NCBI GenBank assembly: GCA_963705355.1
Contig: OY970070.1
Location: 91,056 to 155,055, forward strand
DNA from: an uncultured Thermoplasmata archaeon
GTDB lineage: Archaea > Thermoplasmatota > Thermoplasmata > UBA10834
Direction of reading: 5' to 3'
DNA length: 64,000 nucleotides
A program made the translations under genes and the position numbers. Below the pieces are notes generated by a model. It did not search any database. It was not told the origin of the DNA and saw nothing but the letters and a program-made list of their open reading frames with translations. Numbering within the stretch: the stretch's first letter is position 1; the number at the start of each line of letters is the position of its first letter. Below, piece by piece: positions 31,431 to 48,930 of this stretch.

Positions 31431-31515
31431 GCGAGGGTAGCCAAGCTCGGTCAAAGGCGACAGACTCAAGATCTGTTCTCGCAGGAGTCCCCCGGTTCAA
31501 ATCCGGGCCCTCGCA
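31431..31515 (+). tRNA. tRNA-Leu (anticodon CAA)
   Basis: Folded by hand. The acceptor is GCGAGGG/CCCTCGC plus discriminator A, the D arm is GCC/GGC, the anticodon arm is ACAGA-CUCAAGA-UCUGU, the variable arm is long, and the T arm is CCCGG-UUCAAAU-CCGGG. No CCA is encoded. Confidence 0.92.
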
Positions 31516-31564
31516 CATTAGTTACCGGTAACTTATATATAGGCCAGACATATATCTGCGTCTG

Positions 31565-32161
31565 ATGAAAAAAGGCCCGGGAAGACCCAATTTAGGGCGA
31601 AAAAAGACCTTCAAAGACCGTCAGGTCGACCTCTATCTTCCGACCGTAGAAATGGTCAAGCAGTGGAAGGTCGAGGCGGAAAAACACGGGCTCTCACTCT
31701 CCAAGTTTGTCGTGGAAGTCGTCGACGACACCCTCAGGAAGAACCCGAGAGGCGTGACCCCGAGGGAGCAGCTTGAAGATGAATTGAACAAGACCTGGGC
31801 AGAGCTGACGACTCTCTCTATCGAAGTGGATCATCTTAGGGAGGCTCAAAAGAGGAACGAAGCGACTATAGCGGAGTATCGGGAGAAACTCGCGAGGCCT
31901 GCGGTCGTCTCTGAGGAATCCGCTGAATATGTCCCTATTCTAGCTGAGCTAATCCAAGAGGAGAAGGTCCTTCCGATTGAGAGGGCCAAGAAGATGTTCG
32001 GGATCGGAGACGCAGATGTCGATGCTCTTCGCGCGCTAGGCGCCGCCGTGGACGCACTGGCTAGCATGGGGCTCATCGAGAAAGGCATCTCGGATTGGAG
32101 GTGGATACGTGGAAATCGCAGAAAGAGGCAAGCCTCTCCGCGCACACGAGAACCTCGATAA
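31565..32161 (+). CDS. RHH (CopG/Arc-like) DNA-binding protein with coiled-coil; possible excisionase/regulator
   Basis: The beta-alpha-alpha pattern VDLYLPTVEMVKQWKVEAEKHGLSLSKFVVEVV is followed by a heptad-rich segment. It sits just upstream of and overlapping the integrase gene. Confidence 0.5.
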   Translation: MKKGPGRPNLGRKKTFKDRQVDLYLPTVEMVKQWKVEAEKHGLSLSKFVVEVVDDTLRKNPRGVTPREQLEDELNKTWAELTTLSIEVDHLREAQKRNEATIAEYREKLARPAVVSEESAEYVPILAELIQEEKVLPIERAKKMFGIGDADVDALRALGAAVDALASMGLIEKGISDWRWIRGNRRKRQASPRTREPR

Positions 32162-33083
32162 CCACTTCGCCTCCTTCATTGAGGACTGCCGCCTCCGAGG
32201 GATGACCCATTACTCGATTCTTTCGTACGCCTCCGTGCTGCGAAGTTTCAACCGTCATCTCGGCAGCCTTGGCATCCAAGATGCCGCTGACATCGACAAG
32301 AACGCCGTAAGGGACTATGTACGAGTCCTGCGCGAGGATCGCAAGCTGAGTATCTCTACGATCGAGAACCATCTGTCGAGCATCTCTGCGTTCTTCGACT
32401 ACCTGATGTACGAGGACGTGGTCGACTCAAACATAGCGTTGTCTGTTCGCAAGCGGTATGTGAGGAGATACAAGGCTGAGACACCCGGCGAGGGCCACAC
32501 GAGGAAGCTCATCACAGTGGAGCAATTGAAGGCGTTGGTCGAGTCCATCCTCCAGCCGCGCGACAAGGCCATGGTCGTCCTTCTTGCGAAGACAGGCATC
32601 AGGAGGAGCGAGCTCGTCACCATCGACATCAAGGACGTCGACTTCGCCAGCATGAAGATACTCCTCAAGCCTAAGGCGAAGAGGTCGAACCGGGTAGTCT
32701 ACATCGACGAGGAATGCGCGAGTCTCTTGCAGGATTGGCTCATCGTGAGGCAGAGATATGCCAGAAGTGACGTTCCCGCACTGTTCATAACCGAAGCTGG
32801 AGGTAGGGTGGACAGGAACGGGGTCTACAACATCGTGACGAGCCACGCTGCCCGTATGGGTCTGCACGATGCGTCCTCATGCAGGCTGGAGGATCATTTC
32901 TCACCGCACTGCCTCCGCCACTGGTTCACAACCCAGCTTCGGAGGAACGGGATGCCCAGAGAGATGGTCCAAGAGTTGAGAGGGGACATTCGCTCAGATG
33001 CGATTGACATCTATTATCACATCGATGAGGAGCAGCTCAGGAGCGAGTATCTCAGGTGCATCCCGAGACTTGGGACACGGTAG
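32109..33083 (+). CDS. tyrosine recombinase / integrase (XerC/D-like)
   Basis: SAM-like N-domain (FIEDCRLRGMTHYSILSYASVLRSF). Catalytic R (TGIRRSEL), HxxR (HCLRHW) and Y (IDIYYH). GTG start. Confidence 0.88.
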   Translation: MEIAERGKPLRAHENLDNHFASFIEDCRLRGMTHYSILSYASVLRSFNRHLGSLGIQDAADIDKNAVRDYVRVLREDRKLSISTIENHLSSISAFFDYLMYEDVVDSNIALSVRKRYVRRYKAETPGEGHTRKLITVEQLKALVESILQPRDKAMVVLLAKTGIRRSELVTIDIKDVDFASMKILLKPKAKRSNRVVYIDEECASLLQDWLIVRQRYARSDVPALFITEAGGRVDRNGVYNIVTSHAARMGLHDASSCRLEDHFSPHCLRHWFTTQLRRNGMPREMVQELRGDIRSDAIDIYYHIDEEQLRSEYLRCIPRLGTR

Positions 33084-33577: not shown

Positions 33578-34702
33578 ATGCCCAAGGAAAACGACTCAGA
33601 GTCCGAAGGCAAGCTGACTCGAGCGCCGAAGAGCAGACTTGGGAGACGTCCGTCTGAAGTATCGTTTCCTCGTGATACGCTGAAGAGGAGTCTCAAAGTT
33701 GCTGAATCTATTGAGAAGAACAACGCAGGCAAACCCTACAACAGGCTCGATCTCGCCCAATCTGTGTCTCTCTCGCCTAGCAGTTACTCATTTCGAAGTC
33801 TACTGAGGTCGTCGATTCGCCATGGTCTCACAGAAGGCAGCGAGAAGGCTGACAGGATACAGCTGACGGCGTTGGGCACATCTATCGTAAGCCCCGCTGA
33901 GGAAGGGGAAGTTGCGCGGGGGCTTCGAACGGCTTTACTGAAACCACCTCTGTTTAAGAAGATACTTGATTACTACGACAAGAAGAGGATCCCCCCAGAG
34001 GAATTGTTCAAGAACGCCTTGAAGAGGGAGTTTGGTGTCCCTGTCGAAGACGTTGATGTGTGTTTTCAGATTTTGATGCAGAACTTGAAAGATTATGGAC
34101 TGATTCAGAAGATCAAGGACAACGATTACCTGCAACTCGATAGGTTGAGTTCCGCGACTTCAGAGGGTGAAGAGGGAGTTCCTACCGAGGAATCCGAAGA
34201 AGAGAGAGCCGAAGTTCAAGTCAGAACAGAGGAAGAAGTGAGTCCCCCAGCGCCTACTCAGAAACCAAGAGATATTTTCGTAGCACATGGGAGAAACAAG
34301 AAACCGCTTGAGCAGCTCAAGACAATCCTTGCGCAATTCAAAGTACCTTTCAAGGTTGCGATAGATGAACCACACAAAGGTCGGGCAATCAGCGCGAAGG
34401 TCTCTGAATTGATGCGGGCATGCGGGTCCGGCATTTTCATTTTCACAGCAGACGAGGAAGCGACCGATGCTAATGGAAATCGACTGCTGAGGCCGAGCGA
34501 CAATGTGGTTTTCGAGCTTGGAGCAGGCACTGTTCTCTATGGTGACAAGATTGTTATACTCAGAGAGGAGGGTGTCTCCTTCGGCAGCGATTTCACGGAC
34601 TACGGCCACATCACTTTTGAAAAGGACAGACTGGACGCGAAGGCGCTAGACCTCATCAGGGAGCTTATTGGCTTGGGGTTCCTTCAAGTGACACCGACGT
34701 AG
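33578..34702 (+). CDS. protein with a C-terminal TIR-like nucleotide-binding domain (COG4271 / Cap12-Pycsar-effector type) and an unknown N-terminal domain
   Basis: The C-terminal 140 aa read IFVAHGRNKKPLEQLKTILAQF...PHKGRAISAKVSELMRACGSGIFIFTADE...DNVVFELGAG...IVILREEGVSFGSDFTDYGHITF. An acidic linker precedes them, and the N-terminal about 190 aa look wHTH-like. Confidence 0.7.
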   Translation: MPKENDSESEGKLTRAPKSRLGRRPSEVSFPRDTLKRSLKVAESIEKNNAGKPYNRLDLAQSVSLSPSSYSFRSLLRSSIRHGLTEGSEKADRIQLTALGTSIVSPAEEGEVARGLRTALLKPPLFKKILDYYDKKRIPPEELFKNALKREFGVPVEDVDVCFQILMQNLKDYGLIQKIKDNDYLQLDRLSSATSEGEEGVPTEESEEERAEVQVRTEEEVSPPAPTQKPRDIFVAHGRNKKPLEQLKTILAQFKVPFKVAIDEPHKGRAISAKVSELMRACGSGIFIFTADEEATDANGNRLLRPSDNVVFELGAGTVLYGDKIVILREEGVSFGSDFTDYGHITFEKDRLDAKALDLIRELIGLGFLQVTPT

Positions 34703-34829
34703 TCAGCCATTCCTTACCCTGAGTCATGATTGAAGTTGAGACGTCTAGTCAATGCATTTCTCAGGTTCAAGTCCGAGATGGTAAGACTAATACCCGGTCC
34801 ATGTATTCTGGAGTTGGGCAGGTGCAGCG

Positions 34830-35555
34830 GTGTTAAGGAAGAAGGACCGGGAGAGTCTTGCTCCAAAGGTTTTCCTTAGCTATTCCTCTGGAGATGCCAT
34901 GTTGGCGGGTCGTCTGAAGAGGTCCCTCGAGCAATACGGAGTGAGAGCCTTTCTTGCGCACGAAGACATTGTTCCAGGCGAGAAATGGACGAATGAAATC
35001 ATAAGCGAGCTCAAATCGTGCGACATATTTGTCCCGATTCTGACGGCTAAGTCAAAGGTTTCAGTATACGTCAATCAGGAAATTGGTTTCGTGCTTGCTG
35101 GCAAGGCGAGAATCATACCTCTCAAGATAGATGTTGACCCCTTTGGTTTCATGTCAGAGACCCAGGGAATGAAACCCATCAGAACTACAATCCGAACTCG
35201 AGACGGTGTTAGCCAAGAGATAGACTCGAACTCTTCTGCATGGCTGATTGTGGAGAAGATCATGCAGGATCCTCAGCTCAGAGATGCGCTGAAACGCAGT
35301 GTAATTGACGATATGCACAATAGCAGAAGCTTCAAAGAAACCCGCTCTAGGACGCGAGTGCTGGAGTGTTTCAGCGAATTTGGCCAGAGGGAAGTTCGAG
35401 AACTCGCTAGAGCAGCAGCCAGCAATAGGCAGATTTTCGAGGAGGAGTACAAAGGGAAGAAGTTCTTGCAGGTATTCTTCAAGAATCACCGCAGATACCT
35501 AACTGATGACTTGGCATTGAGTCTCACTATGAAGGGTTTCCTCGAGGGGGAGTGA
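34830..35555 (+). CDS. TIR domain protein with an unknown C-terminal helical domain
   Basis: The N-terminus reads KVFLSYSSGDAMLAGRLKRSLEQYGVRAFLAHEDIVPGEKWTNEIISELKSCDIFVPILT...VYVNQEIGF, a canonical TIR_2-type pattern that includes the conserved Glu. Confidence 0.8.
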   Translation: MLRKKDRESLAPKVFLSYSSGDAMLAGRLKRSLEQYGVRAFLAHEDIVPGEKWTNEIISELKSCDIFVPILTAKSKVSVYVNQEIGFVLAGKARIIPLKIDVDPFGFMSETQGMKPIRTTIRTRDGVSQEIDSNSSAWLIVEKIMQDPQLRDALKRSVIDDMHNSRSFKETRSRTRVLECFSEFGQREVRELARAAASNRQIFEEEYKGKKFLQVFFKNHRRYLTDDLALSLTMKGFLEGE

Positions 35556-35769
35556 ATGGGATTATCTCGTTCCTGAATGTAGGGAACGAGAGATGTTCCT
35601 TCCACATCCGGAGACACTGGATGCCCTTTAATCAATGGACTATTGCAGCGAGCTGGGCAAAGGTACACTAGGGCCTTTTGAATCCGATTCGAGTCAAAGT
35701 GGAGACGAGCAGCGGCAGAGTTTGTATCCTATCGCATGCATGCCTGGAAACCTGATTCAGAATCAGTTG

Positions 35770-44747: not shown

Positions 44748-45482
44748 TCATATGGAATCAGGTGATACCACCCGATTGGGGCCACCATTCTTGGAATGGT
44801 ACTCCGTGGGATCACAGATACCGGCACTCAGGAATGCCTCATGCCTTCGAACGCATGCTCCGCAAGTCCCGCAATGTAACCCTCCGTGTTTTGCTGAATT
44901 CTCGTAGCAGCTCCAAGACGCACGGACCATTGCCTCTCCGACCGACTGCGTCATGAGCCACTTGATAGCTTGGCCTTTTGTGATACTGATCAATGGTGCG
45001 ATGAACTTTATGCGAGAATTGTCATCATTGCTCTCAATGCACTCTCTTATGACATCATTCAATGACGAGACGAATTCTGGGGATGAATCAGCCACGATCT
45101 CACTGTCATCTTTGGTGAAACCCATGACGATTAGGCTTGAGCATGTGTGAAAGGCTACTGAAGCGTACGACACAGCAACGGCCCCAAGAACGAGATTCCT
45201 TCCATAGGGAAACGCACAGGGATTCAGCTCCTTCTGTCTCGCGTACCAGGGCATGGTTATAACGTTTTCGCATAGCTTATCGGCGCCAACCATCCTCGAA
45301 ATCTCCATCACAGCTCGTCGCTCGTCATCATAGGCACTCTGACCTCTGTTGACGAACAACGGCTCTACTCGCTTAATGCCGAGATCGTTCATCGCTCTGA
45401 TCGTTGCTATTGCGGAATCCAATCCTCCGGACAAAAGAGGTACAAGCAACCGCTTGGCATGTTCACTGTCATTGCTGCTCAA
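44748..45482 (-). CDS. QueC-family PP-loop ATPase (7-cyano-7-deazaguanine synthase-like; Cap9/QatC-like)
   Basis: PP-loop LLSGGLDSAIA. The C-terminal zinc cluster SCYENSAKHGGLHCGTCGACVRRHEAF is typical of QueC. Confidence 0.8.
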   Translation of the reverse strand: MSSNDSEHAKRLLVPLLSGGLDSAIATIRAMNDLGIKRVEPLFVNRGQSAYDDERRAVMEISRMVGADKLCENVITMPWYARQKELNPCAFPYGRNLVLGAVAVSYASVAFHTCSSLIVMGFTKDDSEIVADSSPEFVSSLNDVIRECIESNDDNSRIKFIAPLISITKGQAIKWLMTQSVGEAMVRASWSCYENSAKHGGLHCGTCGACVRRHEAFLSAGICDPTEYHSKNGGPNRVVSPDSI

Positions 45483-45949
45483 TGATGTCGCCCCCGTACG
45501 AATGCGACTGCCAACGAACGTGGCCGGTATCAGTCTCTGCCTATAAGTCGGTCCCGACTGGATTCGCTCTCATGACAGGACTGCACTCCAGTAAGATCAT
45601 AAATGCTCGTCTGATTGAGATATAGTCCGAACCAAAACGAGAAACCATTTCGAGCGAAAGGATCAGTCTAAACAGCATATGCACTCTCTGCGGCTCCTCC
45701 CCAATCCACACATGGAGAGATTCAGGAAGACCTTGATCTACAATCTAGGTCAATCACACTTTCTCGAGACCGTCTGATTAATGGTCCAACTGGAGAGCGA
45801 CGGGCGCTTCTGGAACAAATGGAGTAGGATACGCATGGCAGAGTGCATTCAATGGGATGCAAACCTGCTTTCGGTTTGTACTCTCCTTGAGTCGTAACGA
45901 CGAATTGCTCATGTTCAAACTGGCATCTCAGCCGCGTATGCACGGGCGT

Positions 45950-46291
45950 GTATACGCAACTACACATCGTATACTCCGTAGACACGTACAATGTAGACGC
46001 GTTTTCACAGCGTATACACTGAGGATGCTGGAGGTAGACACATTCTCTTCTGTCAAGACTTGAAGAACTAGTCCGCAGCTTAGGCTTCTACCCCGTACAG
46101 TTTACGGCTAGTTTACGGCACCGCGTCATGAGATCCGAGTTATGTGATTTTGGTTCGAGCGGTTCCAGGCAAAGGAAATCAGGGACCCATAGCACGCATC
46201 CGTAAACAGGCGTATACGCAGGTTTACACGGAGATACTGATAGTCTACAATACCGGTCAAGATTCATCGTGTCTACATGAGAGCGTCTACA
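45950..46291. repeat. iteron-like repeat cluster in an ORF-poor 1.1-kb region
   Basis: GTAGAC(A/G)C occurs three times forward (45979, 45994, 46035) and GTCTAC three times inverted (46243, 46271, 46285). There is a tandem AGTTTACGGC pair (46099-46108, 46110-46119) plus an inverted copy at 46200-46207. GTATAC cores lie at 45950, 45969, 46012 and 46212, the last within the perfect palindrome GCGTATACGC at 46210-46219. Confidence 0.75.
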
Positions 46292-46581
46292 AGCTAGCAA
46301 TGTAAGTCACAAGACACGGATGGGAACTCTCTCGAACCCATGTATGATTCACGATCTGGAGAGGGCGGTTCACGGTCCAGGCACTCGAACCGATCTGTGC
46401 AGGTCACGTGGCGTGCAAATAGATAAAGCATTATGAAATTATATATCTCAGATGTGGGATATTTATCATGCCAGCATCACAAGAACGCTTTTCTCTCACC
46501 TGAGCAGCCTAGATAATCCATGCTTGTTATCGACCTCTTATCGGCAGTACCTTATATCTTGTAACGCCCCAAAGAATCCTC

Positions 46582-46833
46582 ATGAAGATCGTAATAAAAG
46601 TAGATGGAAAAGAGCTAGACGATGAACTGCTGCACGAGACCGAAGTGGTCAGCGCAAGGCTTCCCGACGTGCTCGTTTGCTGGGCGCGCGAGGCGATAGA
46701 AAACGAATTGAATGGTGATCGCACCATGACCGAGTTCATCACCTCAGCCGTCGTGTATTGGCTCCTCACCAATGAGCTGATCGGATTCGAGGGCTACGAT
46801 GAGGAATCGGATACGATGACCATATCGGTGTAA
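46582..46833 (+). CDS. small acidic hypothetical protein
   Basis: 83-aa ORF following the iteron region. No motif recognised. Confidence 0.35.
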   Translation: MKIVIKVDGKELDDELLHETEVVSARLPDVLVCWAREAIENELNGDRTMTEFITSAVVYWLLTNELIGFEGYDEESDTMTISV

Positions 46834-46867
46834 CAACGTACTCGGACAACCATGCGGTACGGGAGGC

Positions 46868-46905
46868 GAGGAGTAGCTACGGTGTTCAAATCTAATCCCG
46901 AATCT
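46868..46905 (+). other. decayed copy of the tRNA-Leu(CAA) variable-arm/T-arm (candidate attR)
   Basis: GCGAGGAGTAGCTACGGTGTTCAAATCTAATCCCGAATCTCG compares with the tRNA 3' part GCAGGAGTCCCCCGGTTCAAATCCGGGCCCTCGCA in the same orientation. AGGAGT and CGGT(G)TTCAAATC are shared. Confidence 0.45.
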
Positions 46906-46933
46906 CGTGTTCTTCAGGCCCACCACAGTTCCG

Positions 46934-46978
46934 TCGCCAATCATGAGCCGGGGTTCACGGGCTAGATTCAGTTTCTAG
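46934..46978 (+). other. fragment resembling the 5' half (D arm + anticodon arm) of a tRNA-Leu(CAG)
   Basis: GCCAA-tcatga-GCCGGGGTTCACGGGCTAGATTCAGTTTCTAG compares with the 49.2-kb gene GCCAAGCCTGGTCAACGGCGCTAGATTCAGGGTCTAG. The block GCTAGATTCAG..TCTAG is identical. Confidence 0.5.
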
Positions 46979-47536
46979 AAGAATGCGCTTTTCCCATTAG
47001 CAGATCGTCATGTAGTTACACCGCTTGCATTTCCAGGGAGCAGGATTCGGAGAGAAGTCCTCCTTTTTGTTGATCTGAAGCATCTCACAGCAGGGAGCAG
47101 CCTGTACTTGCCTGTGAATGTGGACGGGGGGCTCCTTTTCCTGGGAGATCCCCACGTGGCACAGGGAGACGGCGAGGTGTTCTCAAGCGCGATAGAAGCG
47201 CCTCTCTCGGCAACGGTAAGATTGTCGGTCAGAGAAGATTTAGACCATCTGGATCCTCTGGCCTATGTCGTCAGGAAACCGAGAGTGCACGACGCCTACA
47301 GCAAGGGCTACATGGGATTCGTGGGAGTGGCAAAGACGATCGATGAGGCCACGGATATCGCCTGCATGAAGGCTCTGGGCTATTTTTGCAGCAAGCCCGA
47401 CATGACGCCTCAGAAGACGGCGATTCTACTCGGCGTCGCCCTAGACCTGACGATAAACGAGATTCCAGACAAGCCAAACAAGGTCGTCAGCGGGATCGTC
47501 CCCCTATCCATATTCAAAGGACTCAGATTACCGTAG
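46979..47536 (+). pseudogene. 5'-truncated acetamidase/formamidase-family gene (C-terminal about 40% only)
   Basis: VDLKHLTAGSSLYLPVNVDGGLLFLGDPHVAQGDGEV matches the family core (D.K.L..GS.LYLPV.V.GA..S.GD.HA.QGDGE). The frame is closed by a TAG at 46976-46978 inside the tRNA-like fragment, and the N-terminal half is absent. Confidence 0.7.
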
Positions 47537-47724
47537 ATCCTGTCCAATTAGAGGAACTGCCTTTCCTCGGGCGGAGCAGGCGAAGTCATACCGACAGTCC
47601 AGGGCTTGTCAATCGTGAAACAAGCGTTTGAGGTCGAGTTGATGGGAAACAGTTTTAATCGCGCGAGTTGTTCTCGGAATCCTGACCGCATTTTCATCTC
47701 AACGGCGATCAGGAGGCTGCAAAC

Positions 47725-48930
47725 TTGAAAGCGAGAGACTATATCAAACTGGAACAGACGTATGGCGCGCACAACTACCACCCACTACCAGTCGTGATAT
47801 CGAAGGCGAAGGGCGTGTGGGTCTGGGACGTCGACGGGAAGAAATACATCGACATGCTGAGCTCGTATTCGGCAATCAACCAGGGGCATCTACACCCTAA
47901 GATCGTCAAGGCCGCGATCACCCAGATGAGGAGAGTCACACTGACATCAAGAGCTTTCTCCAACGACAAGATGGGGCCTTTCATGAAGAAGCTGTGCAGG
48001 GTCGCTGGAATGGAAATGGCGCTCCCCATGAACACGGGGGCTGAAGCTGTCGAGACATCGATCAAGATGGCCAGAAGATGGGCACATCAGACCATGGACA
48101 TACCCGAGAATGAAGGAGAGATAATCGTCTGTGAGAACAACTTCCATGGCAGGACGACCACAATCATCAGCTTCTCGAGCGATCCCGATTCCAAGAAGGG
48201 GTTCGGCCCTTACACCCCTGGATTCGTGACAATCCCCTATGATGACATACCGGCGTTCGAGAAAGCCATTGGCCCGAACACAATTGGCATGCTCGTCGAG
48301 CCCATTCAAGGCGAAGCTGGCATAAACGTACCCGCCAAGGGTTACCTGAAGGGGCTGAGAAGGATATGCGACGAGAAGGGCATACTGCTTATTCTTGATG
48401 AAATTCAGACGGGATTCGGCAGGACAGGTAAGATGTTCGCGTTCCAGCACGAGGGCATAAAACCGGACATCCTGTGCGTCGGCAAAGCCCTCGGCGGCGG
48501 CCTGTACCCGGTATCTGCCTCGCTCTCGAGCAGGAAGATAATGAGCGTCTTCACCCCTGGCAGTCATGGCAGTACCTTTGGCGGAAATCCGCTGGCGGCT
48601 GCCATCGGCATTGCCTCGTTGGACGTGCTGGTTGACGAGAAGTTGTCCAGCAATGCGAAGAAGATGGGCGGATATTTCGTCAAGAGCCTCAAGCAGATCA
48701 AGTCTGACAGGATCAAGGTGATCCGGGACATGGGGCTGCTCATAGGCGTCGAATTCCACCTCGGGAAGGACGAAACCGTTCGCCCCATTTGCGAGAGTCT
48801 CATGAAGAAAGGTGTTCTGGCGAAGGACACACACGAGAAGACGATTAGGTTTGCCCCGCCTTTGGTCATCACGAAGAAAGAGATCGACTGGGCGATGGAA
48901 AGGATAACTGAGGTCTTCGAGAGCGTATGA
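47725..48930 (+). CDS. rocD: ornithine aminotransferase (class III PLP aminotransferase)
   Basis: YGAHNYHPLPVVISKAKGVWVWDVDGKKYIDMLSSYSAINQGH, DEIQTGFGRTG and the PLP Lys in CVGKALGGG. TTG start. Confidence 0.88.
   Translation: MKARDYIKLEQTYGAHNYHPLPVVISKAKGVWVWDVDGKKYIDMLSSYSAINQGHLHPKIVKAAITQMRRVTLTSRAFSNDKMGPFMKKLCRVAGMEMALPMNTGAEAVETSIKMARRWAHQTMDIPENEGEIIVCENNFHGRTTTIISFSSDPDSKKGFGPYTPGFVTIPYDDIPAFEKAIGPNTIGMLVEPIQGEAGINVPAKGYLKGLRRICDEKGILLILDEIQTGFGRTGKMFAFQHEGIKPDILCVGKALGGGLYPVSASLSSRKIMSVFTPGSHGSTFGGNPLAAAIGIASLDVLVDEKLSSNAKKMGGYFVKSLKQIKSDRIKVIRDMGLLIGVEFHLGKDETVRPICESLMKKGVLAKDTHEKTIRFAPPLVITKKEIDWAMERITEVFESV

Follow-up and report, generated by a model that had tools for sequence, protein, structure and literature searches.

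The 64,000-nt stretch analysed here (the window), from an uncultured Thermoplasmata archaeon (GenBank assembly GCA_963705355.1, contig OY970070.1, positions 91,056 to 155,055 of the forward strand), carries two adjacent plus-strand genes, gene 1 and gene 2, each encoding a TIR domain fused to a second domain. Our analysis indicates that the two are probably independent, stand-alone, single-protein TIR abortive-infection modules in a tRNA-Leu island, each consisting of a putative sensor and a TIR predicted to hydrolyse nicotinamide adenine dinucleotide (NAD+), i.e., a TIR NADase. In the best reading, their adjacency reflects the arrival of both in one integrase-borne defence island. We therefore treat them as two separate candidate antiviral suicide switches, a view drawn from sequence and predicted structure. 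Both open reading frames (ORFs) lie where a previous, sequence-only reading of this DNA had placed them, converging on a six-gene operon. Their parts are listed below (pLDDT, predicted local distance difference test; pI, isoelectric point).

33578..34702, plus strand: gene 1, single-protein TIR module of 374 aa (putative sensor N-domain, acidic linker, Cap12-type TIR)
33578..33664, plus strand: gene 1 residues 1-29, disordered basic tail with an AT-hook-like GRRP / (K/R)RGR motif (pLDDT <50)
33665..34147, plus strand: gene 1 residues 30-190, basic N-domain (pI 9.3) with two predicted winged-helix-like units (pLDDT >90)
34148..34264, plus strand: gene 1 residues 191-229, acidic disordered linker (pLDDT 28-38, pI 4.05, D+E 12/39)
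34265..34699, plus strand: gene 1 residues 230-374, Cap12-type TIR domain (Pfam PF10137; Foldseek; profile alignment to SfSTING)
nt 34502, nt 34514 and nt 34589: gene 1 invariant residues N309, E313 and D338, respectively
34830..35555, plus strand: gene 2, single-protein TIR module of 241 aa (TIR and DARNA-like C-domain), GTG start at 34830
34857..35165, plus strand: gene 2 residues 10-112, canonical TIR domain (TIR_2 match; Foldseek)
nt 35079: gene 2 invariant residue E84, in a Y/W-x-x-x-E motif
35166..35552, plus strand: gene 2 residues 113-241, C-domain of a beta-hairpin and seven helices, with motifs S165-x-x-F168 and N199-x-Q201

The sole Pfam match of gene 1 is CAP12-PCTIR_TIR (PF10137), the family of the TIR-STING TIR, at residues 233-341 (E 3.6e-14; 53 bits against a cut-off of 24.7). 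All four motifs that the sequence-only reading had quoted for a Cap12-type TIR (FVAHGRN, HKGRAI, IFIFTADE and NVVFELG) are found in the protein. An AlphaFold2 model made with 20 homologues as input (mean pLDDT 78.8) has a TIR fold at residues 230-370. When the whole model was compared with the PDB and BFVD using Foldseek, only TIR-like or flavodoxin-like matches were recovered. The TIR-STING structures 9lmq, 9lmr and 7un8 ranked first, followed by SARM1/TIR-1 and DNPH1, and the matches to TIR-STING span ~150-170 columns, in keeping with the TIR part alone.

Of all solved proteins, only SfSTING (Cap12) was significantly aligned by the gene-1 family profile, over 'PSDNVVFELG...SDF'. After allowing for an 8-residue offset of the deposited chain and reading the numbering with PMC9402430, the profile alignment placed gene 1 N309, E313 and D338 on SfSTING N80, the catalytic E84 and D110. 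All three residues are invariant in 20 gene-1 family members. In SfSTING, N80 contacts the ribose/phosphate, E84 is catalytic, and D110 is inserted into the dimer mate's active site only upon filament packing (PMC9402430). Since the equivalents of N80, E84 and the trans-acting D110 are kept, the alignment argues for a gene 1 TIR that would be an NADase turned on by ordered self-association. Gene 1 also resembles TIR-STING in that a sensor domain appears to be fused to the TIR. It differs in lacking STING and in that its putative sensor is N-terminal, basic, winged-helix-like and unrelated.

We characterized the region that precedes the TIR. The sequence-only reading had proposed two winged helix-turn-helix modules joined to the TIR by an acidic linker, and the AlphaFold2 model is in agreement: helices and hairpins at residues 35-104 and 111-185 form two helix-helix-helix-hairpin units, and the linker that follows is acidic. 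The halves of the N-domain align in register (third helix, 'YGL' turn, hairpin) but not significantly (hhalign E 0.036, probability 1.4%). Searches of Pfam (E up to 10), PADLOC and PDB profiles with the N-domain gave nothing significant, the best match being La protein at E 0.53. A (K/R)RGR or GRRP AT-hook-like motif is present in 15 of the 18 gene-1 family members that have the N-terminus. Thus, going by the model, two winged helices in tandem and an AT-hook-like RGR tail appear to make up the gene 1 sensor. Because the N-domain is basic, winged-helix-like and preceded by this tail, we infer that it binds nucleic acid and acts as the sensor.

The gene-1 family, whose members keep the same architecture over their full length, comprises 408 clusters at 90% identity (E ≤1e-3), with the best matches 50-74% identical over >90% of their length. 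A profile search of 1.84 billion representatives with the N-domain yielded 3631 clusters at 50% identity, 1369 of them at E ≤1e-10. The N-domain family is therefore large; it is mostly archaeal and uncharacterised. Among the 128 best N-domain matches of ≥230 aa, a gene-1-type TIR is present on 100, while other C-terminal tails in its place include DUF7226 (7/128) and AAA_assoc_C (2/128). This suggests that the N-domain can be reused as a module, which in most proteins, though not in all, is joined to a gene-1-type TIR. Proteins P0329, P0344, P0394, P0406 and others combine the N-domain with non-TIR C-terminal domains of 120-220 aa. Two further observations concern relatives of gene 1. A Bathyarchaeota homologue (L013:8001-9088) is broken into three frames and is probably a pseudogene, and a Thermoplasmata contig carries a second, distant Cap12-type TIR ORF (L012:2185-2910; hidden Markov model (HMM) E 2e-7) ~5 kb upstream of its gene-1 homologue.

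Gene 2 matches TIR_2 at residues 14-104 (E 2.4e-19). No Pfam family was matched by its C-terminal ~125 aa, as expected from the sequence-only description of a canonical TIR followed by an unassigned domain of ~110 aa. The predicted model is confident and compact (pLDDT 88.7, predicted template modelling score 0.86), with the TIR at residues 13-110, a hairpin at 118-131 and seven helices at 133-234. Gene callers start the protein at Met24 (218 aa, P0121), which removes 34830-34898 and with it the first TIR strand (KVFLSYSS). We prefer the GTG at 34830, since the upstream part encodes this strand and since an 86%-identical relative (L014) is conserved at the protein level from residue 3.

Foldseek matched the gene 2 model to L6, SPARTA TIR-APAZ, SARM1, SpbK, RPS4 and EcThsB. 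In a profile alignment, Q83-E84 fall on the SARM1 motif 'HKEI', whose Glu we take to be the catalytic E642. E84 is invariant in 18 sequences, and the residue four positions ahead of it is aromatic, mostly W across the family and Y80 in gene 2 of the window. Thus, the conserved Glu of catalytic TIRs (SARM1/AbTIR type), whose absence would have counted against the sequence-only reading, is present in alignments of both proteins, as E84 in gene 2 (on the SARM1 HKEI Glu) and as E313 in gene 1 (on SfSTING E84; 20 sequences). Gene 2 also gave weak matches to ThsB1 (E 3e-6 to 2e-3) and to NCBIfam ThcB4 (28.5 bits against a cut-off of 220). Its family is small, with 21 matches. In TIR fold, weak ThsB1 HMM matches, conserved Glu and defence-island context, gene 2 is like SpbK and Thoeris ThsB. 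However, its C-domain is unlike theirs, and neither ThsA nor another Thoeris effector was found nearby or in the genome.

Of the two domains left unassigned by the sequence-only reading, the gene 2 C-domain found a relative by profile search, whereas the gene 1 N-domain, as described above, did not. The PADLOC PD-T7-3 model matches 12/13 gene-2 family C-domains (best E 5.9e-9, profile positions 322-405 of 432), and PDC-S34 matches 7/13. PD-T7-3, since renamed DARNA, is an anticodon nuclease of the HEPN type; through its helical C-terminal domain it binds single-stranded DNA (ssDNA) presented by the phage single-stranded DNA-binding protein. Its base contacts are F368, D372, N402, Q403, Y405, W406 and N408, and the F368A and W406A mutants are dead (bioRxiv 10.64898/2026.02.22.705581). 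The gene-2 C-domain profile additionally matches PDB 'Dandelion' (9wwz/9wxf) at E 1.3e-4; 9wxf contains 12 chains. As every DARNA ssDNA-contact residue is found in the aligned 'Dandelion' sequence at a +5 offset, the two appear to be the same or near-identical proteins. A literature search for 'Dandelion' as a defence system returned nothing usable. The top match of the C-domain profile, the designed TPR-like protein 4y6c, was rejected as a repeat-summed artefact in which each single stretch has E ≥3.

Within the gene-2 family, the two motifs with the strongest conservation lie on DARNA residues that include the base-contacting F368 and Q403: S165-x-x-F168 falls on F368, and N199-x-Q201 falls on N401 and Q403. 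Together, the profile matches support homology, at the level of sequence, between the gene 2 C-domain and the distal C-terminal subdomain of DARNA. We conclude that in gene 2 a TIR probably stands where DARNA has HEPN, joined to the distal DARNA subdomain that reads ssDNA; gene 2 would then be an ssDNA-activated TIR. Like DARNA, it is a single-gene module of effector and sensor. It differs from DARNA in its effector, which is a TIR and not HEPN, with no Rx4H motif, and in its size (241 aa versus 456 aa).

To see in what company these genes are found, we examined their neighbours. Close gene-1 relatives have in their neighbourhood McrBC, an OLD/GajA-like ATPase, DpnI with a methyltransferase, NurA/HerA and RelA_SpoT, and more distant relatives have IS240-type transposases and DUF3800, PLD-like and CcdA-like genes. 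Gene-2 relatives adjoin an Mrr-type nuclease (L019, L020), an Eco57I-type restriction-modification gene (L021), a radical-SAM gene (L017) and an O-methyltransferase (L014). Gene 1 is patchily distributed, occurring in 8/88 genera. The gene-1 neighbourhoods and this patchiness fit accessory defence genes, less well than would be the case for a validated system. Since a conserved Glu and defence-type neighbourhoods are found for both genes, a defence role for each, as separate one-gene modules, is likely. NurA-HerA pairs lie beside two of the three closest gene-1 relatives, in L103:1902-6801 (with HATPase_c_3) and L104:2-2801 (with KTSC and an OLD-like ATPase). No TGT (tRNA-guanine transglycosylase) or DUF5591 gene was called in either contig, and these pairs may only reflect how common such modules are in archaeal defence islands.

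One alternative is that gene 1 has no immune role. It would instead regulate by binding DNA, or its winged-helix domain would direct an N-glycosidase (DNPH1/MilB/deoxyribosyltransferase type) that acts on nucleotides or modified bases. The Foldseek matches of the model do include DNPH1, hmCMP hydrolase and nucleoside deoxyribosyltransferases, housekeeping genes adjoin some relatives, and sources label the family only 'predicted nucleotide-binding protein'. However, TIR-STING is the one solved structure that gave a significant sequence match, through its TIR, and the N80, E84 and D110 equivalents are all kept. The gene is also patchily distributed and absent from the same-genus genomes listed, it often adjoins transposases and defence genes, and one copy (L013) is frameshifted, as for a dispensable accessory gene. 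We regard a non-immune role as unlikely.

The sequence-only reading had suggested that the genes might form a self-contained NADase pair. A specific version of this idea is a minimal Thoeris-like pair, in which gene 2 (ThsB-like) would sense infection and make a signal derived from adenosine diphosphate ribose, and the gene 1 N-domain would bind this signal and activate the gene 1 TIR NADase. The genes are on the same strand and 127 nt apart, gene 2 has the weak ThsB1 and ThcB4 matches, and an exact repeat of the window's arrangement, integrase included, is found in another sample (L018), though this looks to be the same island seen in a second sample. Against pairing, the two families were never found together at the other loci examined. 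We examined 16 loci with full-length gene-1 homologues, namely 13 genome loci (from Nitrososphaerota, Bathyarchaeia and Thermoplasmata) and the contigs of the 3 closest relatives (68-73% identity). Neither tblastn nor HMMs made from the gene-2 TIR and C-domain detected a gene-2-type TIR or C-domain in any of them, and an all-against-all comparison of neighbours revealed no conserved neighbour of gene-1 relatives. Apart from IS240-type transposases in two loci and a DUF3800 gene common to two near-identical loci, no neighbours were shared. Likewise, gene 1 was not found in the five other contexts of gene-2 relatives.

Other observations also weigh against a pair. The match between the window and the 86%-identical gene 2 copy of L014 is confined to 34755-35562, that is, the gene and 75 nt upstream. 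Thus, gene 2 moved alone. In 300 genomes of the same class as the window's genome, 7 others carry gene-1 relatives and 14 others carry gene-2-like TIRs, with no same-genus genome listed as having relatives of either gene. G213 is the only other genome with both families; there they are on different contigs, and adjacency was never seen. With >400 clusters at 90% identity, the gene-1 family greatly exceeds the gene-2 family in size, and each protein has its own candidate sensor domain. With no co-location in the fetched loci (by tblastn and four domain HMMs) or in the same-class genomes, we rejected the pair reading. A Thoeris-like pair is therefore very unlikely, and the pairing of gene 1 and gene 2 is coincidental. 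The finding of the genes apart from each other, which the sequence-only reading had listed among observations that would speak against it, does not extend to defence islands, as both kinds of gene sit in defence-type neighbourhoods.

The two genes converge on a minus-strand cassette within the same low-GC island. It consists of six genes encoding a DpdA-like TGT, a DUF5591/ArcS-like protein, a 1414-aa ATPase, HerA, a NurA-like protein and QueC. The sequence-only reading had raised the possibility that the TIR genes are the effector arm of this operon. In such a scheme, they would be the suicide arm of the DpdA-like/ArcS-like/QueC and giant ATPase/HerA/NurA cassette, firing when the modification-restriction module is inhibited. 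We recovered 80 metagenome loci with a DpdA-like profile. Beside the DpdA-like gene were DUF5591 (61/80), the giant ATPase (46/80), HerA (42/80) and NurA (38/80), and the DNA beyond it on the TIR side amounted to ≥1.5 kb in 48 loci and ≥2.5 kb in 36. Searching these loci with both TIR genes by tblastn gave no match, and the four domain HMMs gave one marginal match, just past NurA (L060:1557-2000, minus strand; gene-2 TIR HMM, E 1.6e-3).

The converse comparison agrees. The cassette was not found in the 13 gene-1 genome loci, in which the only TGT match was a 528-aa, housekeeping-type tgtA. Convergence of the genes on the cassette and the NurA/HerA pairs near two of the three closest gene-1 relatives favour the scheme, but those pairs (L103, L104) have different partners, and with 80 cassette loci from diverse metagenomes lacking both TIR genes, 48 of them with ≥1.5 kb of DNA on the relevant side, we rejected it and give it almost no credence. 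The TIR genes are not a component of the DpdA-like/HerA/NurA cassette, and this neighbouring deazaguanine/HerA/NurA cassette is to be analysed without them.

We compared both genes with described signalling systems, using the complete genome, a single contig of 1,975,906 bp, for genome-wide searches. The sequence-only reading had noted no CD-NTase, cyclase, SIR2/SLOG or STING gene. None was found among the neighbouring genes, and widening the search to the genome gave 0 matches each for SMODS (PF18144), Guanylate_cyc (PF00211) and SIR2_2. No third TIR gene was found in the genome. Gene 1 therefore differs from CBASS (cyclic oligonucleotide-based antiphage signalling system) effectors in standing alone, with no CD-NTase in an operon or in the genome. 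Moreover, Pfam, PADLOC and PDB searches of its N-domain revealed no cyclic-nucleotide sensor (STING or SAVED) of the kind that CBASS fuses to TIR. For Pycsar (pyrimidine cyclase system for antiphage resistance), the cyclase partner was not found genome-wide or among the neighbours. Thoeris would require an effector, and SIR2_2 is lacking from the genome; the only conceivable effector partner, gene 1, never co-occurs with gene-2 relatives. A distant synthase or effector was rejected on the same genome-wide searches. Since the defining partner genes were sought and not found, neither gene belongs to CBASS, Pycsar or Thoeris, as had been suspected from the sequence.

The closest PADLOC model to gene 1 is PDC-S35, a single-gene candidate system. 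It is the best PADLOC match (E 2e-16), covers the TIR and the preceding linker, and like gene 1 represents a stand-alone Cap12-type TIR gene. It differs in its N-terminal part: profile positions 95-255 of 264 (or 30-224 of 231) align to gene 1 residues 177/206-368, so that of profiles of 231-278 positions the first 30-107 are unaligned, and the 160-aa N-domain of gene 1 has no counterpart. Literature searches on PDC-S35 and COG4271 gave nothing usable, and no paper mentioning PDC-S35 was found. Nor did a literature search find a paper on the architecture of gene 1 or gene 2.

The island that holds both genes begins at a tRNA gene:

31431..31516, plus strand: tRNA-Leu(CAA) (ARAGORN)
32109..33083, plus strand: tyrosine recombinase, the island integrase (Pfam Phage_integrase E 9.9e-26, with N-terminal SAM-like domains)

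Because the integrase gene directly follows the tRNA-Leu(CAA) and GC content drops, this tRNA is the probable integration site. GC is ~0.49 across roughly 34-47 kb of the window and ~0.57 in the flanks. A search of 45400-48000 for an att repeat gave only 9-10-nt matches to the tRNA-Leu region (e.g., 46884-46892) and thus did not mark a right border of the island.

A model that would accommodate these features is that each protein is a sensor fused to a TIR NAD+-glycohydrolase that stays silent until an infection cue appears. Binding of the cue would drive self-association of the TIR domains and complete the active site, which would then drain NAD+ and result in abortive infection. For gene 1, the cue would probably be foreign DNA or RNA, or a protein-nucleic acid complex; one speculation is that the acidic linker could mask the basic N-domain at rest. 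For gene 2, the sensor would be that of DARNA, with the HEPN RNase swapped for a TIR, and ssDNA would activate the protein.

Several points weigh against reading the genes as two stand-alone TIR modules. Both families are known from sequence and predicted structure, and the closest PADLOC models for gene 1 (PDC-S35) are themselves candidates. The winged-helix reading of the gene 1 N-domain is a predicted secondary-structure pattern with no significant sequence or fold match, and its internal repeat falls short of significance. Nucleotide N-glycosidases (DNPH1, MilB) share the Cap12-type TIR fold, such that the substrate need not be NAD+, and several gene-1 relatives adjoin housekeeping genes (RNA polymerase, tgtA, pyruvate formate-lyase). 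For gene 2, the equivalents of DARNA D372 and W406 are R172 and E204, which are not conserved, and the C-domain covers only ~80 of the ~300 residues of the DARNA C-domain. In addition, ssDNA sensing by DARNA involves a dodecamer assembled from HEPN dimers, and a TIR protein has no such scaffold. Because the C-domain profile also gives inflated matches to a designed TPR-like repeat protein, its signal could partly be that of a generic helical repeat.

A broader proposal, which we put forward tentatively as a possibility that may well not hold, is that the gene 1 N-domain defines an archaeal-leaning class (≥3631 clusters at 50% identity) of direct nucleic-acid immune receptors that fire a TIR-STING-type NADase without a second messenger, and that the ssDNA sensor of DARNA is portable to archaeal TIR effectors, as in gene 2. 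Stand-alone TIR proteins were removed by design from the latest systematic survey of TIR immunity (bioRxiv 10.64898/2025.12.03.692087). Because such proteins were excluded, the sensors of stand-alone TIR fusions are largely uncharted. Gene 1 would place an SfSTING-type active-site constellation on a probably nucleic-acid-binding domain, and, if this domain is a direct sensor, it offers a simple model of messenger-free TIR activation in archaea. Gene 2 yields a testable prediction, namely that ssDNA activates a TIR NADase through a DARNA-type subdomain in which F168 and Q201 are the key residues. It would also illustrate how effectors can be exchanged on a sensor, here one whose mechanism became known only in 2026.

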